Source of the DNA: an uncultured Alphaproteobacteria bacterium
GTDB taxonomy: Bacteria; Pseudomonadota; Alphaproteobacteria; Rs-D84
Length of the DNA stretch: 64,000 bases
Assembly: GCA_947646585.1 (NCBI GenBank)
Contig: CANSHD010000001.1
Span: forward strand, 313,210-377,209
Direction: 5' to 3'
Shown here: positions 11,089 through 47,464 of the stretch, piece by piece
Layout of the letters: each line of letters opens with the position of its first letter
Numbering within the stretch: the stretch's first letter is position 1
Translations under genes and position numbers: made by a program
Notes under the pieces: model-generated
The model's database searches: none
Seen by the model: the letters and a program-made list of their open reading frames with translations, nothing else
What the model was told of the DNA's origin: nothing

Positions 11089-14000
11089 ATGAGTCTCTTT
11101 AAAAAATCAATTGGTTTTCTGGCTGTTTTGACGGCATTTCCGGCGTCATATGCATTGACGGCACGGCCCAGTGTCATCGGTACCGCGTCGGCGCGTATGC
11201 CCACAATGACGGCGTTGATTACAAACACCGGCACGTCCGGCACGGGGTCGACCACAACATCAACATTGCTGGCAAACGCCGAATGCATTGATGCATACAC
11301 GTCGTGTATGAAGGGTGGCGACGCCTGTGGTTCTGATTTTGAAGAGTGCACGAACAAGGTTCTGTTCCACGGCAAAATGCCTCAGTGTCTGTCCACTTTG
11401 GCTCAGTGCAGCACGGCCGGCGTGACCAGCCTGTTCGGTACCGGCACGGTAACGGCGTTGTCCACCGTCGCGACCAAGAACAGCTATGGCGAGGTGACGG
11501 ATTACACATACCCCACCGACGGCAGTGTTCTGGGCCAGTTGATTACCGGTGCGGCGATATCGAACAAATATGACACGTCCACCTGTGTAAAGCGCTATAC
11601 GTCATGCTTAAAGAAAGACAGTGTCTGCGGCAATGATTTTGAACTTTGCACAACCGACAAAGAATTTAGAAAACAGCGCGTATTCTGCGATTCCACTTTG
11701 GCCCGCTGCCAGTCTGAGGGCTTGATTGAACTGTTCGGCAGCGCCAACACATCGACCACGCCCGCCGCAGCCAGCCGCATTGGCGAAATGATTGCCGAAG
11801 GCGCGGCATTGGCGGCTGTAAACGCGGTATCCACATGCTACAAGGTTGTGGACCAGTGTATCTTGAACGCATGTGCGACGAACCCGTACAAGTGCTTTGA
11901 AAACAGCACGAACGCCACCGTAAGTTTGGTTGAGGCCATCAACACCGGCGTCGCCACGGCGGAAAACACGGCCGCATCCACAATTGCGAACGTTACATCC
12001 GGCATGGATATCGTAACGAAATCCAACGTTGCGTCTTATATCAAGAACAGCTGTCTGGACACAATCGGCTCCAACAAATACTGCTATGCCACGTTTATCG
12101 GCAACGGCCAGATGCCGACCGCGTCCCAGCTGAAAGACGAAGACAACCAGGAAGAAATCTATGACGAGGCGTATGCCGCCCGCATGAGCAGCGCCATGAA
12201 GGCCAAGATTTCCGATTTGGTCGATCAGTTTGACACCAAGGCAAAGCAAAAGTGCACCGAAACAATCAAGACATGCGTAATGCGCGTCTGCGGTTCCGGA
12301 TCCGGGGCGGCCTGCTATTCCCAGGTGTTCGGCAATCGTGACAAGTCCATCAACAACAGCGTGACATATCCGGAACTGCAGACCGGCTGTGCGGCGGTTG
12401 TCAACACGGATGCATATTGTAAGTATGCCGCGGCAAATCCGAATACAACCGGCGGTTATACATATTCTTATATAAACAACGATGCGTTCAGCATTCTGTT
12501 CCCGGAATATGAATCCGGCGGCAACGACCCGATTGGCGTTATCTCCGCGTTGAACGCGACGCTGGCCAACAGCTACAGCGACGCGGCCATCGCCACGATG
12601 AAGCGCCAGTGCCAGGCGGTCGCGACATCCTGCGTCAAATCCATGTGCGGCACGGATTACCAGAACTGCTATCGCAACCGTACGGACGTTTATTCTTCTT
12701 TGACCAACACCGGCGATTCGTCGTTTGACAAATCAATGAACAAGGTTGGCGGCGTTCTGGATTACACAATCGTTTTGGGCCTATGCCTGGATACGGTTAA
12801 ATCCGCCTCTGTCTGCGAAGAACATTTGGCGATTGAACGCAACAAGCTGAAAATTGCAAACAATTCCAAGGCCTCTGTCTGGGGCGGTGCGAACAGTTCG
12901 CGCGAAGGTTGGATTGACGCCGGCTCTGCCACGGCCGTGACAGCAACCAGCGAACAGGTTGCGGCAACCGACGAAAACGGTAACGCTTTGTGCACAAACA
13001 AAAACGGCACACAGCAGGGCGTCTGCTACAGCGCCGACTGCGAGGGTGGCTGTACCGAACCCGTATATATCTCATATACGACATATGTTGAATCACAGGC
13101 GGCGTCGACCCTGTTCAAGGATTTGATTTACGACCTTGAAAAAGAGGCTCAGGCGAAATATAACGCGAAATTAACGAAGCAGCAGAATATGTGCATGTCT
13201 TCGAACCAGGGCGGCGTTATGGGCAACCGCGACATGGGCAGCACGTTCCTGTGGGTAAAGCTGAAGTCCAGCACGGTGCCAAAGGCATACCCGGTATCGG
13301 GCCTGAAGCCGTCGCAGTTCGCGGCCAGCAACGACCTGTACGGTTCATTCTGCCGTGTCCGCATAACACTGCAGTCCGATGACAAAAAGATTCAGGACGT
13401 TATCGCCAAGGGTACCGATTGGGCCACGGCATATTTCGCGGCGGGTGATACGTTTACCTGCGGCTCCTGGATTCCGGAAAAAGCGTTGACCCAGCTGGCC
13501 GATGCGGTTGCAAAAGACGCCCGCGCGGACGAGGCCCAGGGCAACGGCAGAACCAGGGCTTGGATGGCTGTTCTGGGAACAGTCGCCGGCGGTGCATTGG
13601 TTGGTGTCGCAACCAACAAGATGCAGGACGGCGCATTCCTGGGCGGACTTTTGGGAACCACCGGCAGCAATACCGGCGACACACAGACAACTGTTGATAA
13701 CTGTGTAACGGCGGCGACATATTATACCGGCTCCAAAGACGCCAATGACCGTTCCTCGTATTTGGCGCGTGCGGTAAAGAATGCCCGTACATTGGGTGTT
13801 GACTCTACAATAATAAGCCAGTTGAACGAAGCGCATCTGGCATATTCGGATATTGCCGGCACAACCGCACCTGCCGTGACAGAAGCGGACCGCCAAGTTC
13901 AAAAGAGCGCAACGTTTATTTCACAAGGTAGCCGTGTCCCCGATGAGACCATGTCAAATACTATTAGACAAAATTTGGGGCTAGAAACATATACAAGCGT

Positions 14001-14589
14001 TTCTTTAACAGGTGTATCTTGTGAATTCAATTGCACTGCATTCACAAACGGTAGATATACAGGTCAACGTTTTGATATTTGTGGTGACAAAACAGGGCCG
14101 GGTTGGTATCAGATAACATCATTGGCCGACTGTCAGAACACCAGTGACCAAGATATACGCAATCCGCAATATACATACACTGTATATTATGAAGATGCAG
14201 ATGCGAAAAGATACAACGACACTTTGGCGACAAGTCGTAGCGAAGCGGCGAGCTATCCGTCGAAAATTGAGGAAAAGCGCCAGGCAGCTAATACTGCGAT
14301 GAACAGATTGTCCACGGCATGCCAGGAAAAAGCGCCGAACGATGATGCGAAAAAGAAAGAAGCGCAAAAGCGTTCCATCACAACGGCCGTTAGTGCGGGT
14401 GTTGGTGCGATTGCGGGCGGTGTGCTGGCGTATCAGGCGACCAAGAGCATCCAGAATTCCAAACTGGACAGCGTTGAAAAAGCCGCCTATGACGAATGGA
14501 TGAACGAAGTCGGTAATCATATCCGTTGCTTTGTCGGTGGCGACGAGGTAGGTATGTACGGCGATATCATCAGCACGTCGATGGAGTAA
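11089..14589 (+). CDS. Large secreted cysteine-rich repeat protein, 1166 aa, with a possible C-terminal membrane anchor.
   Basis: Signal peptide 'MSLFKKSIGFLAVLTAFPASYA'. Two roughly 52 aa internal repeats (CIDAYTSCMKGGDACGSDFEEC… and CVKRYTSCLKKDSVCGNDFELC…). Many C-x5-6-C-x4-5-C modules. Hydrophobic segment 'ITTAVSAGVGAIAGGVLAY' near the C-terminus. Confidence 0.7.
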   Translation: MSLFKKSIGFLAVLTAFPASYALTARPSVIGTASARMPTMTALITNTGTSGTGSTTTSTLLANAECIDAYTSCMKGGDACGSDFEECTNKVLFHGKMPQCLSTLAQCSTAGVTSLFGTGTVTALSTVATKNSYGEVTDYTYPTDGSVLGQLITGAAISNKYDTSTCVKRYTSCLKKDSVCGNDFELCTTDKEFRKQRVFCDSTLARCQSEGLIELFGSANTSTTPAAASRIGEMIAEGAALAAVNAVSTCYKVVDQCILNACATNPYKCFENSTNATVSLVEAINTGVATAENTAASTIANVTSGMDIVTKSNVASYIKNSCLDTIGSNKYCYATFIGNGQMPTASQLKDEDNQEEIYDEAYAARMSSAMKAKISDLVDQFDTKAKQKCTETIKTCVMRVCGSGSGAACYSQVFGNRDKSINNSVTYPELQTGCAAVVNTDAYCKYAAANPNTTGGYTYSYINNDAFSILFPEYESGGNDPIGVISALNATLANSYSDAAIATMKRQCQAVATSCVKSMCGTDYQNCYRNRTDVYSSLTNTGDSSFDKSMNKVGGVLDYTIVLGLCLDTVKSASVCEEHLAIERNKLKIANNSKASVWGGANSSREGWIDAGSATAVTATSEQVAATDENGNALCTNKNGTQQGVCYSADCEGGCTEPVYISYTTYVESQAASTLFKDLIYDLEKEAQAKYNAKLTKQQNMCMSSNQGGVMGNRDMGSTFLWVKLKSSTVPKAYPVSGLKPSQFAASNDLYGSFCRVRITLQSDDKKIQDVIAKGTDWATAYFAAGDTFTCGSWIPEKALTQLADAVAKDARADEAQGNGRTRAWMAVLGTVAGGALVGVATNKMQDGAFLGGLLGTTGSNTGDTQTTVDNCVTAATYYTGSKDANDRSSYLARAVKNARTLGVDSTIISQLNEAHLAYSDIAGTTAPAVTEADRQVQKSATFISQGSRVPDETMSNTIRQNLGLETYTSVSLTGVSCEFNCTAFTNGRYTGQRFDICGDKTGPGWYQITSLADCQNTSDQDIRNPQYTYTVYYEDADAKRYNDTLATSRSEAASYPSKIEEKRQAANTAMNRLSTACQEKAPNDDAKKKEAQKRSITTAVSAGVGAIAGGVLAYQATKSIQNSKLDSVEKAAYDEWMNEVGNHIRCFVGGDEVGMYGDIISTSME

Positions 14590-14604
14590 GCCACAATAAA
14601 CCAA

Positions 14605-14636
14605 AAACGCCCCATAATGGGGCGTTTTTATTTGAC
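14605..14636 (+). terminator. Rho-independent terminator after the Cys-rich gene.
   Basis: 'acgcccca-taat-ggggcgt' hairpin followed by a T-run. Confidence 0.7.
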
Positions 14637-14653
14637 CGGATTACACACCCCCC

Positions 14654-15037: not shown

Positions 15038-15049
15038 ATGTAATATATG

Positions 15050-27346: not shown

Positions 27347-29260
27347 ATGAAATCTTTTACACACATTTTGTTGGTGGCGCTGATGCTGGGGCCGTGTGGC
27401 GCCGCGTTTGCCGCCGCGCCTTTGTCTGGTACGTTGGGCAGTAATTTAACCGCCTATAATCCGAACGGCGGGGTAATGAACAATAATGAGTGGAATTCCA
27501 TGATGAACAGCCGCAGTGGGTCCGGCACGGCCGCCACGGCGGATTTTGGAAATTGTAATTCTGTAATTCTGCGGTGCGCGTCGCCAAAGTGCGCGAACGG
27601 CGGATGCACATCGATTGAGGTTGCGACACCGATTGTTGCAGGCTGCGTTGCGTCAAACGCCGCATGTAAACAGTATGGCGATGAATTGACCCAGTATATC
27701 GCGGCCCAGCTGGTCGCAAATTCAACGGCGAAAACAAACGCACAGATGGCGGCGGCGCAAAATGCCGCGGCCGAACAAAGCGCCATGCAAATGCAACAGA
27801 TGCAGGCCCAGATGCAGCAGATGCAGGCGGATATGGCCGCACAAAATGCACAGCAGATAGCGCAGCTGCAGTCGGCACTGGAAGAACAGCAGCGCGCGAC
27901 CGAGGCTGCCCGGGCCGAAGCGGCCGCCGCCGCCACCGCGGCGTCAAACGCCGCGCAGTCGTCCGCCACAATGGGTGCAACGGTTTCCGCGGACGCATCT
28001 GCAGCCACCACCACGGCATCGTCCGGTGCAACACCAACAACGGTTATGGAGGGGTTGTCCGAGGCGCAGCGTATCGCCGCCAATGCCGGCGTATCCGCCG
28101 ATATATTGGCCCGCGAACAGGTCGCCGGCCAGATTATGACATCGCTGGAACGGGCCCAGGTCAATTTGAACAAGGCCAAGGCGGCAATGCAGAACGCATT
28201 TTCCTATGCCGGGTGCACAACGTCGGGCGACAATTGTGTCGGGCCAAAGCGCGTGTCTGTTTTCCGCCAAAAGGCGATGGAGTTTTTCGAACCGTATGAC
28301 GCGGTTCTGGACGAATTGTATGACGCACTGGTTACGGCCCAGTCCGTCGGTGTCGATATTACCGATATATATATGATGCTCAACGGCAGCTGTAATGTCT
28401 GGGGCGAGTATCTGTGTAATGGCGGTACGGTGTTGGATGATTCAGGCGCCAGAAATACCGAAAAAGTTTGTAAAACGACGACCGATGCAAATGGCAAGGA
28501 AACCACAACATGTGAATCGGTCACGAAAAGTTCCACGCAGTCCGGCGGGAACATGGTTTGGGCCAAATATGATGAAAACAACTGCCCGATTAACGGCGGA
28601 CAATCGAAAAAGTATGGTTGGTCGCGCGGTTTAAACAGGGAATGTTATCGAGACACAACAATCCCGCCCGAAGATTCAACGGCCTGTACCCTTAACCGTA
28701 CATTGACCGATATGGAAGACGTTCAGCGTAATTTCCTGTTTGCCGAAGCGGGCGATATAGACGAACACGTTCGTATCGGGTGCGCGTCGTCTGCGCTGGA
28801 AAACAGCAAGTTCTTCCGCAACCGCAAAAAGGGCTCCAGCATTGATATTGAGACACTGGAACGCATCGTTTCCCAGGATGCGCCGGCAATGTTCGGTTCC
28901 AACCGATTTGGCGCCTCAAGCGACCCAGCGATTGATGGTCCGAAATACTGTGCGGTCAACGCCACCAGCTATATGGATTTGCAAAAGGCGGCGGCGTTGA
29001 AAAAACTGCCCGCGCGCGTCTGTGTCAGCGACAAGTCGCTGGCCGCGAACCTGTCGGCGAACGGATTGCTGTCCATGTCCGATATTGATGCGATGATAAA
29101 GGCCGGCGGAACCAATACCGGCTCCGGCGTGACGGGTAATAAGGATCCGCAATATTCGGACAAGGAAACTTGCAATAAATGGCAGGGCGAATGGAAAGAT
29201 AGTGCATGCAAATGCGACGGCAAAAAACAATGGTGGAACGGTGTTTGTGTTTTCAGATAA
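27347..29260 (+). CDS. Secreted cysteine-rich protein with a Gln/Met/Ala-rich low-complexity coiled region.
   Basis: Signal peptide 'MKSFTHILLVALMLGPCGAAFA'. 'CNSVILRCASPKCANGGC' module. 'QMQQMQAQMQQMQADMAAQNAQQIAQLQ' tract. Many Cys in the C-terminal half. Confidence 0.65.
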   Translation: MKSFTHILLVALMLGPCGAAFAAAPLSGTLGSNLTAYNPNGGVMNNNEWNSMMNSRSGSGTAATADFGNCNSVILRCASPKCANGGCTSIEVATPIVAGCVASNAACKQYGDELTQYIAAQLVANSTAKTNAQMAAAQNAAAEQSAMQMQQMQAQMQQMQADMAAQNAQQIAQLQSALEEQQRATEAARAEAAAAATAASNAAQSSATMGATVSADASAATTTASSGATPTTVMEGLSEAQRIAANAGVSADILAREQVAGQIMTSLERAQVNLNKAKAAMQNAFSYAGCTTSGDNCVGPKRVSVFRQKAMEFFEPYDAVLDELYDALVTAQSVGVDITDIYMMLNGSCNVWGEYLCNGGTVLDDSGARNTEKVCKTTTDANGKETTTCESVTKSSTQSGGNMVWAKYDENNCPINGGQSKKYGWSRGLNRECYRDTTIPPEDSTACTLNRTLTDMEDVQRNFLFAEAGDIDEHVRIGCASSALENSKFFRNRKKGSSIDIETLERIVSQDAPAMFGSNRFGASSDPAIDGPKYCAVNATSYMDLQKAAALKKLPARVCVSDKSLAANLSANGLLSMSDIDAMIKAGGTNTGSGVTGNKDPQYSDKETCNKWQGEWKDSACKCDGKKQWWNGVCVFR

Positions 29261-30098
29261 ATCAGAAACGGGGATAAGAAAATTACGCATCGCGCGCATT
29301 TTGACGGCGTCGCTGGTCTGTGCCGTGCTGGCCGGCCCGGCGATGGCTGACGACGGCTGCGAGGACGAATCCAACGACCGTATCGCACCGGAACTGGCAT
29401 TGTGCAGTGTGCACGCGTATAATATCGGCATATCCTCAAACCCGGCCGGCGCGGACAAGCAACTGATGAAGGAAATCGTCGCGCTGAAAACCACCGTTAT
29501 CACCCAGCAGATGAACAAACAGTACGAGTATATGGAGGCCATGATTCGCCGCTTTAGAACGCAGTTGGAAAAAGCGGTTTTGACGACCAAGCTTCAGGCG
29601 GCCGGCGCTACGCCGTCATCCACGGACGGTTCTTCCTCGTCCGGCGGGGGGGGCTATGGCGGCTCCGCGGGGGGCAGTGGTGGCGGACGCAGCAACAACG
29701 GCCTTGCCAATGCCGAAGACTGTATGAACTCATATACGAGTTATTCGGATGTGTATCAGTGCCTGTTGCGCAATGTCGCAAAAATATCGTCCGCGGTGAC
29801 GTCGGGCGATTTGGGCGTGGCGCGCCGCCAGCTGGCCGCCGATTTGACAACGTTGGGCAGTTATAACCGCTTGACCATAAGCTGTGGCCAGAATCAACAG
29901 AATTGCAGCGTGAACGTGCCGTGTCAGAACGCATTGTCGGAAAAAGATGCCAACGGTAAAAACACGACTTGCGCAACCGCCAAAAGCAGTGGCGGCCGCC
30001 GTGACGATATAGCCGCGTGTATCGGCCAGATGCGTGCATGTATTGTTGCGAATAACGAGGCTTTGTCGAATAATTCGAACCAGCAGTCGCGCCCGTAA
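29202..30098 (+). CDS. Secreted cysteine-rich protein with a Gly/Ser linker. Start codon uncertain.
   Basis: Signal peptide 'LRIARILTASLVCAVLAGPAMA'. 'SSSGGGGYGGSAGGSGGG' linker. 'CMNSYTSYSDVYQC' module related to the other Cys-rich paralogs. The GTG start overlaps the upstream gene end. Confidence 0.5.
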   Translation: MHANATAKNNGGTVFVFSDKSETGIRKLRIARILTASLVCAVLAGPAMADDGCEDESNDRIAPELALCSVHAYNIGISSNPAGADKQLMKEIVALKTTVITQQMNKQYEYMEAMIRRFRTQLEKAVLTTKLQAAGATPSSTDGSSSSGGGGYGGSAGGSGGGRSNNGLANAEDCMNSYTSYSDVYQCLLRNVAKISSAVTSGDLGVARRQLAADLTTLGSYNRLTISCGQNQQNCSVNVPCQNALSEKDANGKNTTCATAKSSGGRRDDIAACIGQMRACIVANNEALSNNSNQQSRP

Positions 30099-30854: not shown

Positions 30855-31502
30855 ATGAAAAAAATTGCTATTTTTGTCGCGGCGACGGCTGTTCTGGCCG
30901 GGTGCACGACTGTGAACCCCTACACGGGCCAGTCCCAGACGTCCAAGGCCGTATGGGGCACCGCAATCGGTACCGCGGCGGGTGCGGCGACAGGTGCGCT
31001 GGTATCGAAAAATCACGGTGCGGGCGCGATTGTGGGCGGCCTGGCCGGTGCGGCTGTTGGTGGCGGCGTCGGATATTATCTGGACGTTCAAGAGGCGGAA
31101 CTGCGTCAAGAGTTGGCATCGACCGGTGTCGGCGTTGAACGCACCGACGACAGCATTCGCTTGATTATGCCGGGCAATATCACGTTTAAGACCGATTCTT
31201 CGGATATCAACGCCAATTTCTATGCGACGTTGAACTCCGTGGCCAAGGTTTTAAAGAAATACAGCAATTCGACGGTAATGGTTTCCGGTTACACCGACAG
31301 CACGGGCGGCATGGAATACAACCAGAATCTGTCGCGCAATCGTGCGGCGGCGGTTGCCGCATACCTGCAGGGCCAGGGTGTCGCCGCCAACCGGTTTGAA
31401 ATTTTGGGCATGGGCCCGTCAAACCCGATTGCGTCGAACGACACGGTCGCGGGCCGCGCCCAGAACCGTCGCGTGGAAATCAAGATTATTCCGAACAAAT
31501 AA
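30855..31502 (+). CDS. OmpA-family lipoprotein with a glycine-zipper N-terminal region.
   Basis: Lipobox 'VLAGC'. Gly-zipper 'GTAIGTAAGAATGALV…GGLAGAAVGGGVG'. OmpA_C motifs 'VSGYTDSTGG…NQNLSRNRAAAVAAYL…NRRVEIKI'. Confidence 0.75.
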   Translation: MKKIAIFVAATAVLAGCTTVNPYTGQSQTSKAVWGTAIGTAAGAATGALVSKNHGAGAIVGGLAGAAVGGGVGYYLDVQEAELRQELASTGVGVERTDDSIRLIMPGNITFKTDSSDINANFYATLNSVAKVLKKYSNSTVMVSGYTDSTGGMEYNQNLSRNRAAAVAAYLQGQGVAANRFEILGMGPSNPIASNDTVAGRAQNRRVEIKIIPNK

Positions 31503-31519: not shown

Positions 31520-31550
31520 AAACAGCCGCCGTATGGCGGTTGTTTTTTAC
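31520..31550. terminator. Bidirectional terminator between the convergent OmpA-like gene and the PLD gene.
   Basis: 'cagccgcc-gtat-ggcggttg' flanked by an A-run and a T-run. Confidence 0.6.
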
Positions 31551-32557
31551 CCCTGATAAAATCCCCACAAATATTTGAACTGATTCGTGAACTCTTTGTT
31601 TTGCTCCGGAAAGAACATACAGTTTTCCGCATTGGACTGTGTCGCGGACGAGGTCCAGTTGTACGAGCCCGTTTCCACATCCCGTTGGTCGAATATCGCG
31701 AATTTATGATGCATTATCTTGTGCTGTTTGTTCAGCACAACCGGAATACCGCCGTCGCGTATGCGCCCGATTAGCGATGCGCGCCCGGCTGCTTGCAATT
31801 TGTCACTGATTACGCGAACGCGCACGCCGCGGCGGTGCGCGGCCAGCAGGCTGTCCACTATTCGGTCGTTTGTAATCGAATATACGGCCACGTCGATTGC
31901 GCGCGATGCCGCGTTTATACCGGCGATAATGTTGTTTTCACAATCGGGTCCCGGGGTAAAATATACCCGCGCCCAAGACTTTTCCGGAATCGCCGGCACG
32001 GGCAGTGCGGCGGAATCAATTTCATAATCGTCTGTTTGCGTATCGCGGGCCGACCACAGGCGCCGCCACCATGACGGCTTTTTATCATCCGCCCGCGTCA
32101 TGCCAAGCACGGAATACAATTCCTGTTCGGACGGACTGTCTTTTTGTATTATCAACAGCAGCAACCTGTCGTCGGCCCCCTTTGCCATTACCAGTATGTC
32201 GCCGGGAACGCCGGAATGCATGACGCTGTTACGGGCGTATTTCAATTCCCCCTTGCCGCGGCCGTTATACGATGGCGGGTAAAAATAATAGTATCTGGCA
32301 AATCCGTCCTCTTCCAGTTTGTCGCCGCCCAAATACACGTAATCCGTAACATAGTCTTTCTTTTCACGACCCAGAATTTCTTCCAGCTCTTTTGTTGCCT
32401 GAATTGTTTTTGCGCCGCTGATTGGCGAATCGCGTCGAACAAATGTCTTAATCGCTATCTGTTGAAATTCCGGCAGCTCTGACAGCTCAAATGCAATGCA
32501 GCACGGTTGAGTTACCAATATAAACAGGAAACCGAATAATAAACCAAATAAACGCAT
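31547..32557 (-). CDS. Secreted phospholipase D / Nuc-like single-HKD domain protein.
   Basis: Signal peptide 'MRLFGLLFGFLFILVTQPCCIAF'. C-terminal 'HHKFAIFD…GSYNWT' fits the HxK(x4)D(x6)GSxN HKD motif. Only one HKD copy, as in Nuc endonucleases. Confidence 0.6.
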   Translation of the reverse strand: MRLFGLLFGFLFILVTQPCCIAFELSELPEFQQIAIKTFVRRDSPISGAKTIQATKELEEILGREKKDYVTDYVYLGGDKLEEDGFARYYYFYPPSYNGRGKGELKYARNSVMHSGVPGDILVMAKGADDRLLLLIIQKDSPSEQELYSVLGMTRADDKKPSWWRRLWSARDTQTDDYEIDSAALPVPAIPEKSWARVYFTPGPDCENNIIAGINAASRAIDVAVYSITNDRIVDSLLAAHRRGVRVRVISDKLQAAGRASLIGRIRDGGIPVVLNKQHKIMHHKFAIFDQRDVETGSYNWTSSATQSNAENCMFFPEQNKEFTNQFKYLWGFYQG

Positions 32558-32608
32558 ATACAGCCCTTTGGGGTATTATTTCTTATATGGATAACTTGTT
32601 CAACAATA

Positions 32609-33448
32609 TTATGCCGCGAATTTAAGGAAGCGGTCGTCGTTTGCAATAACGGCATATCGATTGCGAATAAATATGCGGCGATATAAAGGCCGGCCGTTTA
32701 GTATCACGCCTGTTTTTGTCGGTGTAAAATCTTTGTCCATCCCCAGTACTTCAAATTTATCGGAATCGTAATCCAGCAAAAAAGTAACGGGCACCCCCAT
32801 TATCCCCGTATAGTCCGTCGGAATTTCTTTTATTTTGTTAACATTTATCGCATCGGCGTTGTCGTATTTTGGATAATGTGCCGCATGCCCGTAATATTGA
32901 CTGTGCGGAGCGCGGGCATCCCTTTTGCGATTTGTCGTCAGATTTGTGAACCAGCATATGTTGCCAAACTTTTTTAAGCGCCCGTCGGGCTGGATAAAGG
33001 CTCTTGGGTACGTGCACCCGGTGCGCACCTTGTTGGCGCGTATCAAAGAAAATGTCTGTTCATATGCGACGGCGTTCATGTTTCCGATAATCAAAAAATG
33101 CTTATCGTGCGCGGCCAGCAGGCCCATAAACTCCCGAAACAAGGAAAAAGGCGGATTTGTGACAATGACGTCCGCCCGTTTCAGCAATTCAACCGATGCC
33201 GCACTGCGAAAGTCATCCCCACCCAGGCCACCGCTGAAACACACATCACGTATTTGGCCGGCGGCCTTTAATTCCGTAAAGTATTTCACAAACGCACTGT
33301 CCGCGGTGTCACAGTTGCAATAAATGGTCTTATTAAAAAAATGCGACAGGTAATTGTCGCATTCTTTCCGTACATCCTCGTAACGCGTATAAAATTCGTC
33401 GTTTTTGACCGCGCGGGCACGGTGCAGGTTTGCGCTTTTTGATGACAT
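32609..33448 (-). CDS. N6-adenine DNA methyltransferase of the EcoRI-methylase family.
   Basis: 'KNDEFYTRYEDV', 'IYCNCD', 'IVTNPPFSLFREF' (NPPF motif IV), 'FLIIGNMNAVAYEQTF', 'WFTNL', 'YPKYDNADAINVNKIKEIP' and 'GIMGVPVTFL' recall M.EcoRI blocks. SD ggagagagg precedes the ATG. Confidence 0.65.
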   Translation of the reverse strand: MSSKSANLHRARAVKNDEFYTRYEDVRKECDNYLSHFFNKTIYCNCDTADSAFVKYFTELKAAGQIRDVCFSGGLGGDDFRSAASVELLKRADVIVTNPPFSLFREFMGLLAAHDKHFLIIGNMNAVAYEQTFSLIRANKVRTGCTYPRAFIQPDGRLKKFGNICWFTNLTTNRKRDARAPHSQYYGHAAHYPKYDNADAINVNKIKEIPTDYTGIMGVPVTFLLDYDSDKFEVLGMDKDFTPTKTGVILNGRPLYRRIFIRNRYAVIANDDRFLKFAA

Positions 33449-33600
33449 GGTGCCTCTCTCCTGTTTTAATAAAAAAAGCCCCGCAAATGCGGGGGAAATA
33501 AAAAAACGGACAGATTTCTCTGTCCGCACATATGAATACTATATCAAAAATCGCCCCAAAAAGCAATATAAAACGCCCCGTTCGGGGCGTTTAGGCATTT

Positions 33601-34947
33601 TTACGGGCACTGGGCCAGCTGATTTAACACATTTTGTACGTCTGTGTTAATGGATACTGTTATCTCGCGCTGCAGGCCGTCTATATATGTATAGTCGAAT
33701 TTGGACGCGGCAAATTCCGGCGCGGCCGCATATGCGTCGCGGAACGGGGCCAGCATCGCCGTAAACCACTGGCGCCCGCGGCACAGACATCCGTTTCGAA
33801 CGTCCGCCGCAACGGCCGCGGTGGCGGTGTTGGGATATTTTGCGTCAAATTCAGCGTCCGTCATCATCAGACAGCGGTTGCCCAAACCGTAAAAGTTCGC
33901 GTCATCGGCCAGGAATTTGTAAACCAAGCCGTCGGATGCGCCGGCTTTCTTTAAAGAATACGCCATTCCGTCGGTACAGCACGCCTGGGCGCTGCGCATC
34001 AGCATCTTGTATCTGTCCAGCAGCGGCGCCGCCGTCGGGTCGGTTGCGGTAATGTTTTTGTTGCATTTCGCCTTTACGATAAACGCATCCAGCAATTCCG
34101 GGCGCAATTTATTGCTTCGCGGGGCGACCGTTTCGCGAACCATGGGCTTGCGCCGCCATATTTCGCATTCCGTTTCAGAATCAAACGGGCATCCGTCGCC
34201 ACCAAAGGCAATCGCGATTACGTTCGTCATGTCCTGGGCCACGTATTCGGGTTTTGGCGCCGGCATGTTCATGTTGTTCACGACCAGCGTGTCCGTCCAC
34301 AGGTTCTCGGCCGGCTTTTGCGGGGCCAATAATTCTTCAACACGCGCGCGCGTTGTGGCCGCGTCGGCCATGTTTTGATTATACAGCTCTATCACATCCA
34401 CCGATTCGGATGTCACCGCCGGTACTGTGCCGTATTGGGCAAAGACCGATTCGGCCGGGCTGTCAATCTCGCGCAGGTAAATTTCCGGCGCCGGTTCCAG
34501 ATACCAGTCGCTGAAATCCTTTTTCTTGTAATTTACAATCGAATCGTCCCAAATCGGCACGCCGTCGCGCCAATCGACCGTTTTGTCGTATCCGCGGGCC
34601 TTGTAATTGCCGTTTGTTCCGTCATACAAGGCGGGGCGGGTGTCTTCCGGCACCGGCTTTATGCTTAATGTCTTTATATTGCGCATCGGCACCGCGCCCG
34701 CATATATATATTGCGGTCGGGCCGCGTATGCCGGCACCGCCGGTACGGTGTTCATAACCGGGGCCGCAGGCTGGACGGCCGTAACGGTCGTCGTTTCCTC
34801 TATCACGCCCAGAACCGTCGGCTCCGCCGTGGCCGGTGCAATATCACAACCGGCGCCGACACATTCCGAGCCGTGCGCCATCGTCACCGGACACATCAGC
34901 GCCAGGGACGTCAAAATAACAAGTCTTCCTTTCATAATACGAATCAT
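33601..34947 (-). CDS. Secreted cysteine-rich hypothetical protein.
   Basis: Signal peptide 'MIRIMKGRLVILTSLALMCPVTMA'. More than 12 Cys, including 'CTDGMAYS', 'CLCRGRQW' and a C-terminal 'AQCP'. Confidence 0.5.
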   Translation of the reverse strand: MIRIMKGRLVILTSLALMCPVTMAHGSECVGAGCDIAPATAEPTVLGVIEETTTVTAVQPAAPVMNTVPAVPAYAARPQYIYAGAVPMRNIKTLSIKPVPEDTRPALYDGTNGNYKARGYDKTVDWRDGVPIWDDSIVNYKKKDFSDWYLEPAPEIYLREIDSPAESVFAQYGTVPAVTSESVDVIELYNQNMADAATTRARVEELLAPQKPAENLWTDTLVVNNMNMPAPKPEYVAQDMTNVIAIAFGGDGCPFDSETECEIWRRKPMVRETVAPRSNKLRPELLDAFIVKAKCNKNITATDPTAAPLLDRYKMLMRSAQACCTDGMAYSLKKAGASDGLVYKFLADDANFYGLGNRCLMMTDAEFDAKYPNTATAAVAADVRNGCLCRGRQWFTAMLAPFRDAYAAAPEFAASKFDYTYIDGLQREITVSINTDVQNVLNQLAQCP

Positions 34948-35206
34948 ATCACAAAAACAGGCCTTTTTAAAACATAAAAATGCCAAAAATACGAATCGAA
35001 TGACCGAATCATGCATATTTTTGACGTTCGGGCCCCGCCTCAGAATCGGTTTTTACCCCGAATCCGAATCAATTTTCGCGAAAAAAGCCCCCGGCCAAAA
35101 AATTTTTCAAAAAAAATCATCAGGTAAAAAATCCCGGATTTCCGGCGATTTTTCCTAAAAGATGGGCCTGCCCAAAATTTTTTTGAAATTATTTTTGAAA
35201 TTGCGC

Positions 35207-35235: not shown

Positions 35236-35553
35236 GTGCGGGCTCTCAAGTTGAGATGAAACGAAAAAAGAAATCTCAACCTCTAGGAAATTCGGCGGTT
35301 CGCAGGTAATTCTGAGGGAATCGCAACATTGTGAATAAAAGCAGCTCATCAAAAATTCAAGAAGGGATGTGCAGACAGTTGAATTTGGAAATATCCAAAC
35401 TTTGACTAAGTCAAATGTGCATATCCTAGACAGGTAGTAGGTTTACATATTAAACCTCGTTAAAAACTTGTCTTGCGAATAAATATATGTAAAGACGAAC
35501 TGATATTATGTCAGTGTTGTTTATGCACAGGACTTAAACCACAAGTTTTTTAG

Positions 35554-37054
<1,501 letters not shown>

Positions 37055-37138
37055 ATAGAGAATACCGTTTCCACGAAAACGGTCAAATCCAAAGCGACTG
37101 TCTGAACATCTCTTTTTGAAAATGGGTATAATTCTGCT

Positions 37139-37215
37139 GGGTCAGTAGTTCAGTTGGTTAGAATGCCGCTCTGATACAGCGGAGGTCGAAGATTCGAGTT
37201 CTTCCTGACCCACCA
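37139..37215 (+). tRNA. tRNA-Ile (anticodon GAT) in the 16S-23S spacer.
   Basis: Acceptor GGGTCAG/CTGACCC. Anticodon stem CCGCT/AGCGG, loop CTGATAC. T-loop TTCGAGT. CCA encoded. Confidence 0.9.
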
Positions 37216-37521
37216 CTTAAATTGATGAGGTTGGAATCAAAAACAAATACTTGTTTTTGATTCCAGATGTTCTGATGAATATCTTCGGAATCTGCTTTTA
37301 TTAGCAATCATTGTAAATCGGTTTTTAATGTCGTAAATCAAACTTTATGGAAACATGACTTTTGATTTATTGAACATCGTAATCTCAAAAATCTTTCTAA
37401 ATAGAGTAATCACGAAAGTGATAATTCAATTAGAGAAGCAAGAATCAACTTAAATGCTTAAAAAACTCATTAAGTTCTTTTGATTGTGTTTGAAGACTTT
37501 CTCTTCAAGCATAAGATAAAA

Positions 37522-40258
<2,737 letters not shown>

Positions 40259-40354
40259 TTTTTATCTTATCGTTTGACTTATGTCAGACGATTGCTTGAA
40301 GAGAACGTTGACATTGATTCTTGAATCATGTATTATGATGTTCGCTGGATTTAT

Positions 40355-40470
40355 TCTGGTGATTATTGAGCGGGAGCCACCCTCTGTTCCATTCCGAACC
40401 AGACAGGGAAACCCCGTATCGCCGATGGTACTTTGGCTTAAGCCACGGAAGAGTAGGTCGTCGCCAGAGT
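40355..40470 (+). rRNA. rrf: 5S ribosomal RNA.
   Basis: '…CCATTCCGAACCAGACAGG…CGCCGATGGTACTTTGGCTTAAGCCACGGAAGAGTAGGTCGTCGCCAGA'. Terminal helix TCTGGTGA/TCGCCAGA. Confidence 0.85.
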
Positions 40471-40504
40471 AAATCCAGTTTCCGATATTAAAAACCGATT
40501 CCAC

Positions 40505-40532
40505 CGCCCATTGGGCGGTTTTTTGTTTTAGG
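40505..40532 (+). terminator. rrn operon terminator.
   Basis: 'accgccc-attg-ggcggt' followed by T6. Confidence 0.75.
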
Positions 40533-40562
40533 ATTTTCAAAATTTATGATATAATGTAAATC

Positions 40563-41122
40563 ATGGTAAAAAGTCTTTATATTATCGCGGGTCCAAATGG
40601 TTCTGGTAAAACCACATTGGCAAAAGAGCTGGTAAAGGAAGATAATATTGCATTCTTAAACGCAGATGAAATAGCAAAGAAAAAAGGAGATGCAATCGGC
40701 ATTGCTGCCGGTCGTTTGCTATTGGATAAGCTAGATTCTTTATTGGAGGAAGGTAAATCTATTATTTGGGAATCTACGGTTTCAGGTAATTTTCATACAA
40801 AAATCATAGAACGTGCGAAAAAGTCAAAATATGAAATAGTATTTATATCTTTTTAGATTCTGTTGAGCAAAATATTATGCGTATAGAACAGCGGGTCGCA
40901 TTGGGTGGGCATACCGTTCCTGAATGTGATGTGCGTCGCAGATATAATCGCAGTTTAAATAACTTTAAAGATATCATTCCAAATGTTTCTCATTGGGAAC
41001 TGTATTATAATGGTGGCAATAATTATATTTTAATAGCTCGTGGCAAGGGAGATTTTATTGACATTATTAATGAACAAGTCTATCATAATTTTGTAAAAAG
41101 GCTAAAAAATGACAAAAAGTGA
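40563..41122 (+). pseudogene. Zeta-toxin / AAA-family P-loop ATPase gene disrupted by a 1-nt frameshift in a T5 homopolymer at 40850–40854.
   Basis: ORF1 'MVKSLYIIAGPNGSGKTTLAKEL…KYEIVFISF*'. With one extra T the frame continues as 'FLDSVEQNIMRIEQRVALGGHTVPECDVRRRYNRSLNNF…', which is the typical family C-terminus. The region is AT-rich. Confidence 0.65.
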
Positions 41123-41252
41123 TTATGAATTATCTGCAAAAATATCACGTTTGGCTAATCGCGGCGCATACAAGGCGCGTGAAAAAGCGCGCCGAGCGGG
41201 CGTGCCTGTTGCATATGCGTTTGATGGAAAAATATTTGAGGTTTGTCTGTAA
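41109..41252 (+). CDS. Small ORF of 47 aa, overlapping the ATPase 3' end and followed by a strong terminator. Possible cognate partner of the ATPase.
   Basis: 'MTKSDYELSAKISRLANRGAYKAREKARRAGVPVAYAFDGKIFEVCL'. Ends directly at the hairpin 'acgcccaatgggcgg' followed by T6. Confidence 0.35.
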   Translation: MTKSDYELSAKISRLANRGAYKAREKARRAGVPVAYAFDGKIFEVCL

Positions 41253-41286
41253 TAAAAAAACGCCCAATGGGCGGTTTTTTAATTTG
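41253..41286 (+). terminator. Rho-independent terminator.
   Basis: 'aaaaaaacgcccaatgggcggttttttaattt'. Confidence 0.75.
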
Positions 41287-41305
41287 TCGCGTGGAGTGAT
41301 TGATA

Positions 41306-41541
41306 TGTTAAAACAGATATTAAATTTCGAAAATGGTTTCGGTGATGTTGTCATATTGAAAGAGACCGCTGGCTTTACCGTTAAATATTCGCTTAAGAAA
41401 TGCCCGGGCGTATATCATTGCCGTGTAAATAATACGGTGGATTATGACAAGGCCGTAAAGCACTTTAACCGCTATCGTGGCATATTAAAGCGTCGCGAGA
41501 CCATCAGCCGCACGCGGGGGAAACAATCGTGCCGGATATAA
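41306..41541 (+). CDS. Hypothetical small protein, 78 aa.
   Basis: ATG-initiated ORF 'MLKQILNFENGFGDVVILKETAGFTVKYSLKKCPGVYHCRVNN…' in an AT-rich context. Confidence 0.3.
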
Positions 41542-41768
41542 TCACAAACGTAGATATGCTGTACACCACCCCCATGGGAACGATGCGGATACGTCGTAAT
41601 CTTGGTATAGATGTCGACAACGTGGTTGAATATTGCCGTGCGCGCATACTGTCGCCGGAATCCGCAATAGAACGCCGTGGTAAAAATTGGTATATATTGT
41701 TGCCGGATTGCACGATTACGGTTAATGCGTCGTCTTGCACAATCATTACGGCGCACAAAGTCCGTTGA
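41529..41768 (+). CDS. DUF3781-like small protein.
   Basis: '…LYTTPMGTMRIRRNLGIDVDNVVEYC…RRGKNWYILLPDCTITVNASSCTIITAHK' resembles the DUF3781 signature (GKNWY…ITVNAxSYTIITAH). Confidence 0.45.
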   Translation: MPDIITNVDMLYTTPMGTMRIRRNLGIDVDNVVEYCRARILSPESAIERRGKNWYILLPDCTITVNASSCTIITAHKVR

Positions 41769-41847
41769 CCAATTATTTTATTGCAATCTATGTAATCTGT
41801 AATACACTTTGGGGCCAGAGAGGGAATGCAACAAAAGGTAAGTTGTT

Positions 41848-42258
41848 ATGAAAAAGATATTCCTTGTCTCTGTTATTTCCATTTTTTGTGCGGGCGTCGC
41901 GTTGGCGTCGGATATGCTGCCGGCGGGCGGTTATTATGAAACCGAAAGCGCCGATTGCGACATGAATGCAATGCGTGCCGAATTGGACCGTGCCACGGCC
42001 GCGCGTCGTGCGGTGATTACGGTTGTGCGCTGTGCGCCGCGTGCGACGGACCGTGATATGGCCCGGGACGCGTCCTATGACGCGGAATATGCGGCGTTTG
42101 ATGATGGTTGCACCGATTGCGCCGCCCCGATAGAGCGCGTGATAGACCGCCGCGTATATGTGGAGGAAACGGTTCAGCAGTATCGTCCGGTTCTGCACTA
42201 TGTTCCGGCCGGAACATATTCGCGCACACGCCAAATATGCAACGAATGCGATATGTAA
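41848..42258 (+). CDS. Small secreted Cys-containing hypothetical protein.
   Basis: Signal peptide 'MKKIFLVSVISIFCAGVALA'. Six Cys including a C-terminal 'CNECDM'. Confidence 0.45.
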   Translation: MKKIFLVSVISIFCAGVALASDMLPAGGYYETESADCDMNAMRAELDRATAARRAVITVVRCAPRATDRDMARDASYDAEYAAFDDGCTDCAAPIERVIDRRVYVEETVQQYRPVLHYVPAGTYSRTRQICNECDM

Positions 42259-42392
42259 AAAGTCTTGCCAAACCGGCGCAAAAGCGATAAACTTTGTATA
42301 TAAACATATGCCTAATAAAAACCACCGATAAAAGCGGTGGTTTTTAATTTATAAAAAATATTGGTTTTCTGCATTTTTTTATTCTCTCCGGT

Positions 42393-42938
42393 GTGCCTAA
42401 GGAAAACGGTCCTTTTTTTGCAGCGCTGTTTTGCGCATGTTCCGCCAACGCGGGGACAGTATGTGCCGATTGTTACAAGTGTGTTTCCGGAACCGCTGAC
42501 AATTGTTATAAATGTGAATATGATAAAAACTATTGTATGGGTATCGATGAACCGATTGTAGAATGCGCGGGAAATGCAAAGTGGGACAGCACACAACGCA
42601 AATGTGTCTGTCCCAATACTATTGCGGCGATTTGTAGTAATCCGTGGGGGTTTTTCGATAGTTCCGACAATGTGTGTGATTGTGCCCAGGTGGCGTGTAT
42701 ATCAGGAAAATATCCCGTGTCGGCCAATACATGCAAAGATTGCCCGTTGCCGGATTTCACATTGTCGTCCTGTAGCATTCAAAGCAGCGTTGATTATGCG
42801 ACGGATATGGAAATGAAAGTCGGCGGATACAACGGCTGTTATATCCCCGGGGGCTGTGTGGCAACAGACGATACCGGTACGTTCGAACTGATTGCGGACT
42901 GCAAGTACAGCACGGCGCTGGAAGTTGAGTTTAATTAA
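42393..42938 (+). CDS. Small cysteine-rich hypothetical protein of about 180 aa with 22 Cys. Start uncertain (GTG).
   Basis: 'CADCYKCVSGTADNCYKCEYDKNYC…CVCPNTIAAICSNPWGFFDSSDNVCDCAQVACISGKYPVSANTCKDCPLPDF…'. Confidence 0.4.
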   Translation: MPKENGPFFAALFCACSANAGTVCADCYKCVSGTADNCYKCEYDKNYCMGIDEPIVECAGNAKWDSTQRKCVCPNTIAAICSNPWGFFDSSDNVCDCAQVACISGKYPVSANTCKDCPLPDFTLSSCSIQSSVDYATDMEMKVGGYNGCYIPGGCVATDDTGTFELIADCKYSTALEVEFN

Positions 42939-43444: not shown

Positions 43445-43502
43445 GCCGCGTTTTTACATGCCCCAAGATTGATATCCTGGCCGATTATGTTATGATTACA
43501 TT

Positions 43503-44608: not shown

Positions 44609-44612
44609 GTGA

Positions 44613-45170: not shown

Positions 45171-45379
45171 ATCCCGATTATACAACATTGCAATCAATGT
45201 ATCAAATAAAGTTGACATTATAAGGATTTTTTCCTTTTTACAGTGTCGCGCACGCGGGTTTTCTTATTTACAGAGCTGTCTGAAAATGTTATAATTGCTA
45301 CAAACAGACGAGGAGGCGCGGTCTCCTACGTCCTGAAAACAGTAGGTTTCCGGGCTTTCCCGGATACAGGGAGTTATTT

Positions 45380-47464
45380 ATGAAAAACCGTAATTTCGGG
45401 GATATTTTCAAAAACGTGGTCGGCACAATGTTCTTGCTGGCCGGCGCCGGGTTTGTTTGTTCGACCCTGTTGTCGATGCGCGCCGTGTTCGCAGATCCGA
45501 TTGCACCGACGGCGGGCGTCGCCACAGGCCAGGTATCGTCGCAGCGCGGTGCAACCGCGCGCACGTCCGGCCGCACCGCGACGTCGCGTACAAATGCGGC
45601 CACGGTTGCCCGCACAACATCGGCCCCGGCCGCCGCACGCAGTGTGACCGGCCGTCCGGTTGTTGCGTCGCGCACCACCGCCGCCACGCCGGCCGCAACC
45701 ACGCAATCACGCAGTGTGACGTCCCGTACAACCGCGTCGGGCCGTAATACCGTTTCGCGTACCGGAAACGCGTCGCGCAGTGTTGTCGCCCGCACCGCCA
45801 CAAACAGCAATGCCCGCATCTCTTTGACCGGCAGCGCCATCCGCGGCAGCAAGGCCAACACCACGTCGACCGCATACACATATCTGACCAGCAAGCTTTA
45901 CACCGGCAACTATTCGAATATTATCGACCCGACCACGGGGCTGATTTCTGCCGATGCATACAACAACTGCCTGGAATCATATTACACATGCATGGACGAA
46001 ATCTGCACGGCGCGTAACGCGGCACAGCGCAGATGCGCCTGCGCCGGCCGTGTAAAGGCGTTTGCTGAGGCGGAAACGGCGCTGGAATCCGCGAACGAGG
46101 AATTGATTAAAGTATCGGGCGAACTGGCGCTGCTGATTGCGACCAAGGGCAAGGATGTTAGTCAGGCATTCCAGTTGACCGATGCGGAAAAGGTTATGAA
46201 CTGTGTTTCATGGCGCGAAACAAGTAAAAACGGCACGGCCGATGAGACCGAATTCGGCGACTGGTGCGCGGCGCACGGAATTTATGACAGTTCCTGCAGC
46301 AACAAAAGCGCTCCGTCATATTGTAAGCCGTCCGGCAACACGTTTGACTTTGATATCGCGGATTTGGACGGCACGGGCAGTGATATTTTGGCCTCGCTTC
46401 AGTCCTGGGCGAATGCAAAGGAACAGACCCTGACAATCGTTGCAAACGACAATGACAATCTGTTCAATTCCGCATTGAACCTGTCGGGCGTTGTAGATGG
46501 CCTGACCGGTATCACGGGTTCTTTGGCGTCCAGTGACGATTTAAAGGATTCTTTGGCCGAAACATGGGGCTATGAATTGTTCGAATATGCGCACAACAAC
46601 GTCTGCAACCGCGTTTTGGACTCCTGCTTTAACGGTATTTACGAGGCGTGCGGCACACCGCCGTCCACAGGGCGCAAGTGCAGTAACGGCGCCGCCCAGT
46701 GTCCGTATAACTATAACAGCATGGTATCCGTTTCGAACACCGGTACATATGAATTGAACTTTGTCACCGGCAACAGCGGCTATACGTCTTCGAATTCCGC
46801 AACATGCTTTGGATACACGTCGTCTTCCGGCGACCCGTACTCCAACCTGCGCGGCCCGGTTGCCGATGCGCGCCGCAGTATTCTGCAGAAATATGCGCTG
46901 GATGCGAACGCCGATTGCGACGCATACGGCGAACAGCTGCGTACGACCGCACAGAATATCGGCTATCAGAAGGTCGCCGCACAACAGGCATTGCAGAAAA
47001 AGCGTCTGGAATTCGCTCAGGAAGAGGTTGCCACGATTGCCTCCGAATATCGCAGCGCAATCAGCAACTTCAACGAATGCTTGGCGGAACTGTATGACTG
47101 CTATACGACCCAGGAAACATCCAACAAGTCCTGGAGCACCAGCCGCATAAAGACATACTGCAGCCAGGTGTCGAATGCGCCGCATTGCTATGAACAGATG
47201 ATTTGCAGCAGCCCGAACAGCACACTGCAGGCGGTTATCGACAAAGACGACGATGCGACCAAGGCTTGTACGAATACGACCGAGTACAAGACGAACACCT
47301 GTCGCAATATCATAACGATTGCCGAAATCTTGAACGACTCGTACGCCAGTGGCGCGGTCGAGGGCTCGGCGGTTCAATTGCGCGAGGCCTGTCTGCAAAA
47401 GAACGGTATCGACGGCGTGCGTGATTGGAAAAAGTCCACCACGGACGAAAATGAGGGCTGGTAA
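45380..47464 (+). CDS. Secreted cysteine-rich protein with an N-terminal Ser/Thr/Arg degenerate tandem-repeat tract.
   Basis: Signal peptide '…MFLLAGAGFVCSTLLSMRAVFA'. Repeats 'ARTSGRTATSRTNAATVARTTSAPAAARSVTGRPVVASRTTAAT…SRSVVARTATN'. 'CLESYYTCMDEICTARNAAQRRCACAGR' module shared with the 11089 paralog. Confidence 0.7.
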   Translation: MKNRNFGDIFKNVVGTMFLLAGAGFVCSTLLSMRAVFADPIAPTAGVATGQVSSQRGATARTSGRTATSRTNAATVARTTSAPAAARSVTGRPVVASRTTAATPAATTQSRSVTSRTTASGRNTVSRTGNASRSVVARTATNSNARISLTGSAIRGSKANTTSTAYTYLTSKLYTGNYSNIIDPTTGLISADAYNNCLESYYTCMDEICTARNAAQRRCACAGRVKAFAEAETALESANEELIKVSGELALLIATKGKDVSQAFQLTDAEKVMNCVSWRETSKNGTADETEFGDWCAAHGIYDSSCSNKSAPSYCKPSGNTFDFDIADLDGTGSDILASLQSWANAKEQTLTIVANDNDNLFNSALNLSGVVDGLTGITGSLASSDDLKDSLAETWGYELFEYAHNNVCNRVLDSCFNGIYEACGTPPSTGRKCSNGAAQCPYNYNSMVSVSNTGTYELNFVTGNSGYTSSNSATCFGYTSSSGDPYSNLRGPVADARRSILQKYALDANADCDAYGEQLRTTAQNIGYQKVAAQQALQKKRLEFAQEEVATIASEYRSAISNFNECLAELYDCYTTQETSNKSWSTSRIKTYCSQVSNAPHCYEQMICSSPNSTLQAVIDKDDDATKACTNTTEYKTNTCRNIITIAEILNDSYASGAVEGSAVQLREACLQKNGIDGVRDWKKSTTDENEGW

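Follow-up and report, generated by a model that had tools for sequence, protein, structure and literature searches.

The stretch analysed here (the window) is a 64-kb segment of a Gram-negative chromosome (positions 313,210 to 377,209 of contig CANSHD010000001.1), from an uncultured alphaproteobacterium of the order Rs-D84. It contains seven open reading frames (ORFs), labelled A to G, whose predicted products appear to be lineage-specific, exported, cysteine-rich proteins of the disulfide type without a characterised domain. An initial annotation had described them as one expanded family of secreted proteins built on a common C-x3-Y-T-S-C-(M/L)-x3-C module. By sequence and profile comparison, A to F instead fall into at least six distinct orthologous groups, each single-copy in the window and without demonstrable paralogy among them. 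What appears to link the genes is their recurrent though shuffled adjacency, a fusion of C and D, the C-x6-C spacing found in A to D, and strain-variable cassettes, rather than a shared module. Tentatively, and with confidence somewhat short of even, we read A to F (G being doubtful) as a co-functioning exported set that would form a disulfide-stapled envelope or surface apparatus displaying variable domains. Below, L numbers denote related loci and P numbers related proteins.

Seven cysteine-rich proteins and the search for a shared module

All seven ORFs were recovered where they had originally been placed (Table 1). Together they take up about 9 kb of the window, and the genes of A to F lie within 36 kb, separated by housekeeping blocks. 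The cysteine strings quoted previously were located at residues 66-80 and 166-180 of A, 197-209 of B, 174-187 of D, and 70-87 of C. Cysteine accounts for 3.8% of residues in A, 3.6% in both B and C, 3.7% in D, and 3.2% in E, and the short proteins F and G reach 5.1 and 11.6%; the known envelope proteins of the same window (LptD, a SurA-like protein, an OmpA-family protein, PagL, and PBP1a) contain 0.3-1.1%, so the described cysteine richness (3.2-11.6%) is borne out. The N-terminal hydrophobic leader is likewise seen in all seven proteins and is followed by an AxA-like site, as judged from hydropathy and inspection, with the starts of D and G uncertain. The low-complexity tracts were also confirmed (S/T/R in B, Q/M in C, and G/S in D).

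Searches of A to G against Pfam, NCBIfam, and PDB sequences returned no match above the curated threshold, nor did searches with distant A homologues or with family profiles, in agreement with the earlier view that no characterised domain family is present. Lineage specificity, too, was upheld: A-, B-, and C-type homologues come only from metagenome-assembled genomes of uncultured gut 'Alphaproteobacteria bacterium', one locus being named Candidatus Enterousia, and are confined to reduced-genome gut members of this class (Rs-D84 or Ca. Enterousia-like). D, E, and F recur in the related loci that were fetched. G is the exception, as none of the 90 related loci carries a homologue of it. G belongs to a 14-member cluster at 90% identity that comprises close relatives only; the gene may be young, evolving fast, or in decay, and its membership in the set is weak. 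The gene is preceded by a hairpin resembling an intrinsic terminator and by an AT-rich stretch. From the G cluster, the collection contains only a 41-amino acid product on the contig to which the A, B, and F proteins of the window belong.

Within the families, nearly every cysteine is 97-100% conserved. The C-x6-C spacing is found 13 times in A (1.65 expected after shuffling), four times in B (0.87), three times in C (0.75), and twice in D (0.40), and is not above the shuffling expectation in E, F, and G. Cysteine counts of the mature proteins are even in five of six cases (44 in A, 24 in B, 22 in C, 10 in D, and 6 in F). A C-x2-C motif is missing from A to E, so a metal-cluster role of the cysteines was rejected for these five; it may still apply to F and G. 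An EGF-like reading of the C tail, of G, and of the tails of the B paralogues described below was also set aside, as the pattern was recognised by eye only and Pfam shows no EGF match. C, D, and F diverge faster than adjacent housekeeping genes: in L004, C and D are 63 and 60% identical to the window proteins, as against 94% for NusA and 85% for LptD.

Table 1. Features of the window, with coordinates counted from its first nucleotide.
Feature	Coordinates	Strand	Remarks
Pilin-like operon: three proteins of 405-450 amino acids, zinc-ribbon/transmembrane protein, small secreted 6-Cys protein	5194..10042	+	
Protein A, 1166 amino acids, 44 Cys	11089..14589	+	At least 871 homologues
A, tandem duplicated 6-Cys module, residues 64-118 and 164-218 with linker	11278..11742	+	hhalign
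A, three repeated Cys units, residues 250-332, 389-444, and 508-576	11836..12816	+	Cys positions, spacing, and predicted helices
A, glycine-zipper-like hydrophobic segment 1, residues 823-842	13555..13614	+	Kyte-Doolittle 1.65; consensus W-M-T-x-L-G-x-L-G-G-G-x-G-G; low pLDDT
A, hypervariable cassette, residues ~851-1099	13639..14385	+	Strain comparison, family-wide variability
A, glycine-zipper-like hydrophobic segment 2, residues 1096-1115	14374..14433	+	Kyte-Doolittle 1.57; consensus G-A-x-V-G-x-x-A-G-G
Protein C, 637 amino acids, 23 Cys	27347..29260	+	At least 1241 homologues, 16 invariant Cys
C, hypervariable cassette, residues ~362-436	28430..28654	+	Strain comparison with P0390
Protein D, at most 298 amino acids	29202..30098	+	Mature part probably from ~29355
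Protein E, 11 Cys in mature part	33601..35016	-	Likely start 34947 or 34935
Protein F, 136 amino acids, putative signal peptide, two C-x2-C pairs	41848..42258	+	
Protein G, 181 amino acids, 21 Cys, CxC/CxxC-rich	42393..42938	+	
Protein B, 694 amino acids, 25 Cys	45380..47464	+	At least 1205 homologues
B, variable patch, residues 281-330	46220-46369	+	

None of the comparisons united the proteins into one family. All-vs-all BLASTP among A to G gave no cross pair at E<1, and when family profiles were aligned with hhalign, every cross-family pair received a probability of 0.1-3.6% (P>=0.01). Starting from B, jackhmmer converged on B-type proteins and did not recruit A, C, D, or E. The YTSC motif itself sits in a six-cysteine module of about 55 residues with the pattern C-x6-C-x6-C-G-x-D-F-x2-C-x12-C-x6-C, and a hidden Markov model (HMM) of the A module, built from 124 sequences, matched A alone (in two copies) among the window ORFs in any frame, even at E<=10. 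The two copies in A align with each other at E 6e-19 in hhalign (E 3e-12 within the whole protein). The module of the initial annotation is therefore a real repeated domain, tandem in A, but it was not found in B, C, or D of the window. In D, the string CMNSYTSYSDVYQC reads CLNSTGGSKDALQC, CNNE-LLPTDVMTC, and the like in orthologues; 'YTS' is thus not conserved, and the resemblance is due to chance. The supposed lineage-specific expansion likewise finds no counterpart in these single-copy genes.

A link between families emerged outside the window. In many related genomes, a paralogue of B, here termed B2, is encoded just downstream of B and is homologous to its N-terminal 200 residues (hhalign E 1.2e-11); neither B2 nor a C+D remnant was found downstream of B in the window (47465-48354), and B2 is absent from the window altogether. 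Among 11,085 ORFs, the A-module HMM retrieved, after the A orthologues, B2 paralogues only (E 6e-5 to 8e-3); the matched site, a related half-module in the central region of B2, is the same in each. With the A module, jackhmmer converged on A plus B2. In tblastn against the window, 105-114 residues of B2 (approximately) align to residues 82-187 of A (11332-11649; E 3e-4). As far as these searches reach, the B2 paralogues of other genomes are the sole cross-family link for the A module, and an indirect one. It is also in B2-type genes of other genomes, not in the window, that sequence comparison places the real 'expansion'.

These matches bear on the possibility that a single ancestral cysteine-stapled helical repeat gave rise to A, to B and B2, and perhaps to C, which would since have diverged too far to be recognised easily, so that the set would in part be an ancient paralogous family. 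Besides the B2 results, C-x6-C-x4-7-C units occur in A (seven overlapping matches, five units), B (two), and C (one), and in module-level hhalign comparisons across families the best pairs reach P values of 4e-4 to 8e-4. Corrected for 36 comparisons, these become ~0.01-0.03, making the cross-family similarity of modules suggestive, and short cysteine-rich motifs easily align through composition. Moreover, the whole-profile probabilities for A/B, A/C, and B/C stay below 4%, iteration never recruits B, C, or D, and nothing at all comes from D, E, F, and G. On balance we regard a common origin as plausible but less likely than not; it is compatible with the reading of A to F as a co-functioning set.

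Domain organisation and strain-variable cassettes

From its N-terminus, protein A comprises a putative signal peptide, an S/T-rich stretch, two tandem 6-Cys modules, three cysteine-containing helical units, and a beta/helix region; the hypervariable cassette comes next, framed by glycine zippers 1 and 2, and the tail that follows zipper 2 is conserved. The second zipper corresponds to the hydrophobic C-terminal segment that had been noted in the largest protein. Each of the three units carries the pattern C-x6-C-x4-C-x6/7-C...C-x9-C on predicted helices, and their similarity to one another is suggestive only (profile P 0.01-0.06). Thirty-eight cysteines of A are at least 97% conserved. Distant homologues keep one N-terminal module, the three units, and an 'ARPSV..SRMP' motif just past the leader. 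A profile of A searched against 1.84 billion representatives gave 263 clusters at E<=1e-3, and the matches listed are full-length or fragmentary A-like proteins. The AlphaFold2 (AF2) model of A has a modest predicted local distance difference test (pLDDT) score of 62; its N-terminal half is mostly helical, with the C-x6-C pairs on helices.

Foldseek searches with this fold returned nothing at E<0.6, and the structural parallels are generic. Four-helix-bundle rods of talin, vinculin, alpha-catenin, and FAT match A in fold at 8-15% identity, but these are cytoplasmic, eukaryotic proteins without disulfides. Similar to twin-CxnC (CHCH-type) proteins, which have fixed i/i+n cysteines on two antiparallel helices, the A module is predicted to place C66/C73 and C100/C107 in this way, and units 3-5 of A contain C-x9-C pairs; there is, however, no homology, the compartment differs, and the A units have extra cysteines. 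The Helicobacter Hcp proteins with Sel1-like repeats (SLR) are also secreted proteins built of helical repeats, with neighbouring helices stapled by pairs of cysteines, as we propose here, yet Pfam scans show no Sel1 match, the spacing is C-x6-C(-x4-6-C) rather than the SLR pattern, and the window proteins are far larger and carry cassettes and glycine zippers. The two GxxxG-rich hydrophobic segments of A recall the glycine-zipper lipoproteins SlyB/Pcp and the Rickettsia 17-kDa antigen (PF05433, PF13488). Unlike these, A has neither a lipobox nor a Pfam match, and its zippers lie about 250 residues apart instead of being adjacent; the bona fide member of this group in the window is the OmpA-family protein (30855-31502). 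The glycine-zipper protein C19orf12 was weakly matched by distant A homologues.

In protein C, a putative signal peptide is followed by a 6-Cys module at residues 70-107 (27554-27667) and a coiled region rich in Q and M (27719-27916); the core beyond these is conserved, and the tail is rich in cysteine. The annotated start of D, the gene after C, is doubtful on sequence grounds. Ahead of the signal-like segment, the region 29202-29360 offers a single canonical start in frame, a GTG from which D would share the final 59 nt of C, and the segment begins about 25 codons past this GTG, beside ATA/TTG and a GGGG stretch. In E, the C-terminal half is very conserved.

Protein B starts with a putative signal peptide and a disordered S/T/R-rich tract (45497-45934), continues with a C-x6-C-x4-C-x9-C-x-C module (45968-46042) and the variable patch, and ends in a helical cysteine core. 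Its AF2 model is poor (pLDDT 51) and has the C-x6-C cysteines in predicted helices. The C-termini of B2 contain Listeria-Bacteroides surface repeats (Flg_new, PF09479; E 1e-20, 74 bits against a cut-off of 27), a feature shared with Flg_new surface proteins. The B of the window lacks these repeats, which are accessory and not part of the family core. B2 paralogues (L015, L016, L017, L033, and others) range from 640 to more than 2000 amino acids, with highly variable cysteine-rich C-terminal extensions made up of Flg_new repeats and CxC-x2-GY-type repeats that look EGF-like by eye. Locus L033 has three B-type genes in a row.

Close relatives of A and C differ in sharply localised segments. Compared with A, P0004 is 98-100% identical in the flanks and ~62% in segment 917-1089, and P0007 is 96-100% identical in the flanks and 39% over residues 851-1099. 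For C, the flanks of P0390 are 98-100% identical and the cassette is 21% identical, with indels. Across the A family, the majority frequency is ~0.7-0.9 over residues 1-840 and 1081-1166, with most of the scaffold at ~0.8-0.9 and exceptions at ~281-320 (0.53) and 1081-1120 (0.51), and falls to 0.09-0.25, with many indels, at residues 841-1080. The A cassette is placed between the two glycine-zipper segments and between the conserved C872 and C1078, and each of its alleles has its own even set of cysteines, which argues that it is extracytoplasmic; its AF2 pLDDT is ~85-90.

The borders of both cassettes are sharp and the pattern is mosaic or recombination-like, with 40-80% difference between strains next to flanks of 96-100% identity. 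The combination of a conserved scaffold with sharply bounded hypervariable segments between near-identical strains resembles neisserial pilin/Opa and other antigenically variable adhesins. There is no homology to these, though, and neither donor nor silent cassette copies, repeats, nor a diversity-generating or recombination element is visible in the window.

Gene linkage and possible roles of the set

The genes recur together in related genomes, in changing order. In L008, three pilin-like genes, a zinc-ribbon/transmembrane gene, and a gene for a small secreted protein precede RluD, A, C, and D, which E adjoins on the opposite strand. The same pilin-like operon is followed in L009 and L010 by A and, directly downstream of A, by E. 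L075 and L085-L089 have the arrangement F ... PagL, B, fused C+D, and B2, and F is kept upstream of the B region in 22 loci. D always lies directly downstream of C, as in the eight genome loci fetched with C and in L046, and the two form a single ORF in nine further loci and in P0450, P0451, and P0455, as detected with a D-only HMM. The signal-like segment of D is missing from the fused proteins, as expected of a true C+D fusion.

The operon is found, whole, upstream of RluD and A in the window, L008, L009, and L010. In L056, the pilin-like genes adjoin DnaX, and the fetched stretch does not reach A. By inspection, the three pilin-like proteins (5194-9035) have a G|xxxxE/Q N-terminal motif followed by a hydrophobic helix, the motif being conserved in orthologues, and none of them matches a pilin model in Pfam or NCBIfam. 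Those encoded at 6533-7750 and 7719-9035 are paralogous to each other (BLASTP E 4e-8). The zinc-ribbon/transmembrane protein shows weak similarity to DUF3426, and the secreted protein has 158 amino acids and six cysteines. No secretin, ATPase, platform gene, or prepilin peptidase is present in the window. The cysteine-rich proteins may conceivably be cargo of this pilin-like system, as the initial annotation suggested. In L009, a gene for a VirD4/TraG-type type IV secretion coupling protein (1-795) precedes the pilin-like operon and A by about 3 kb.

In the co-functioning set that we favour, the conserved cysteines, mostly at i/i+7 (C-x6-C) on predicted helices, would most likely act as disulfide staples that turn helical-bundle chains into rigid, protease-resistant scaffolds. 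Such scaffolds would carry the short strain-variable domains at residues 851-1099 of A, 362-436 of C, and 281-330 of B. The variable domain of A, lying between two zippers and two conserved cysteines, suggests a membrane-anchored, disulfide-closed display loop. A to F would probably assemble into one envelope or surface structure that contacts a partner or host cell, or that faces phage or immune pressure. That disulfides form, that the proteins lie at the surface, that they join in a complex, and that they serve attachment are all steps that we infer. The surface or adhesin-type role put forward in the initial annotation is the best-supported reading.

Several observations weigh against this reading. 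The cysteine count of mature E is odd (11). Rs-D84 is reported to be strictly fermentative and to have no respiratory chains (PMC12306168), which makes the oxidant for a DsbA/DsbB-type pathway problematic, and no Dsb gene lies in the window. A known type of outer-membrane anchor (beta-barrel or lipobox) was not recognised, and the window encodes no secretion machinery. The structural models of A and B are modest and poor, respectively (pLDDT 62 and 51). Finally, reduced genomes often keep their gene order, which leaves adjacency alone as weak evidence, and the fusion covers C and D only.

We also considered whether the proteins might form a periplasmic or outer-membrane lattice that is cross-linked by disulfides and stiffens the envelope, without an adhesive or display function. 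Its model would be the chlamydial cysteine-rich complex of OmcB (~60 kDa) and OmcA (~9 kDa), which are envelope proteins exported through the Sec pathway in a reduced-genome, host-dependent Gram-negative bacterium, with several per cent cysteine in the large protein, more than 10% in the small one, and presumed disulfide stabilisation. The window proteins have putative Sec leaders, highly conserved scaffolds, and a similar cysteine content (~3.6% in the large proteins and 11.6% in the small G), and their host has a reduced genome and is probably partner-dependent. Against this, A to G have no sequence or Pfam match to the chlamydial proteins (scanned at E<=1), with neither an OmcB/OmcA model nor any curated family above threshold, and A is predicted to be mainly alpha-helical rather than beta-rich, the model of B being too poor to judge. 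The peptidoglycan and lipopolysaccharide machinery is intact in the window (PBP1a, MraY, FtsW, MurG, LptD, and LpxD), and the strain-variable cassettes of this lineage, together with Flg_new on B2, indicate exposure rather than a buried lattice. We consider a purely structural lattice improbable.

A more specific version of the display reading, which on present evidence is quite improbable, would make A to F parts of an organelle for attachment or display, not described before, in gut Alphaproteobacteria that depend obligately on a partner. Here A would be held in the outer membrane by its two alpha-helical glycine zippers, a non-beta-barrel anchor, and would show its disulfide-closed, strain-variable cassette at the cell surface. 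Its rod of about 800 residues of disulfide-stapled helical bundles would cross the periplasm and dock B/B2, C-D, E, and F, with assembly dependent on the adjacent pseudopilin-like trio.

Very improbable, in our view, is that the proteins are released effectors or toxins acting on a partner or host cell, for example with the A zippers inserting into a target membrane, and exported by what could be a T2SS-like pseudopilin system or a Ptl-like T4SS (type II and type IV secretion systems): the two A zipper segments are flanked by long helices, the pilin-like operon lies upstream of A, and the coupling protein of L009 is near the cluster, but the faint echoes of ClyA, MakB, XaxA, and colicin Ia in structure and sequence are non-significant and at noise level (E 0.9-7), 65-70% scaffold conservation over deep divergence is unusual in effectors, no immunity-like gene is evident, and the window has neither secretin nor ATPase.

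Genomic surroundings and host lineage

The remainder of the window is largely occupied by housekeeping and envelope genes, including those for EngA, DnaX, RluD, RlmN, the SurA-like protein, LptD, LptF/G, NusA, IF-2, FabZ, and LpxD, as well as VIT1, MPG, Sua5, PagL, PBP1a, MraY, FtsW, MurG, LeuS, and GyrA. Two further ORFs (1951-2736 and 1092-1895, the latter with 12 cysteines and at first a candidate member of the set) were judged spurious and excluded; their sequences look odd, they have no Pfam match, and almost no matches were found among the 90 related loci.

An insertion/deletion island on the minus strand (31547-33529) separates the OmpA-family gene from E. Of its two genes, one PLD-family nuclease-like and one for an EcoRI-type adenine methyltransferase, L004 has both, L001 only the methyltransferase, and L002 and L003 neither. 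The rRNA operon (35553-40469) has only tRNA-Ile(GAT) in its 16S-23S spacer; tRNA-Ala was not detected there. The ~1.4 kb 3' of the 5S rRNA (40470-41847) are of low GC content (39%) and contain a basic ORF of 140 amino acids (41119-41541) without a family match. An MliC-like lysozyme-inhibitor gene (50470-50775, plus strand) lies between PBP1a and MraY. After MurG, on the plus strand, follows a gene for a conserved exported protein of 445 amino acids (54210-55547) that contains no cysteine, has no Pfam match, and shares 78% identity with its L013 counterpart.

Members of the order Rs-D84 (genus Enterousia) are reported to have genomes below 1 Mb, to lack respiration, to be strictly fermentative, and to miss biosynthetic pathways; a partner-dependent lifestyle has been proposed for them, and many of their membrane proteins are uncharacterised or hypothetical (PMC12306168). 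Literature searches on Rs-D84 and Enterousia turned up no mention of the proteins described here. Disulfide-rich variable surface proteins are, as a general kind, familiar from host-dependent bacteria; the A to F families themselves are uncharacterised and have no detectable known relatives.

Bacteria of the Rs-D84/Enterousia type occur widely in the guts of animals and humans and presumably live off other cells, but nothing is known of how contact with these is made (PMC12306168). Since A to F are kept across the sampled related genomes, with conserved scaffolds and variable cassettes, they are the most concrete candidates so far for a contact or attachment machinery. They could also serve as strain markers, and they provide at least six new protein families, together with a recurrent C-x6-C helical staple, that are open to curation and structural tests.

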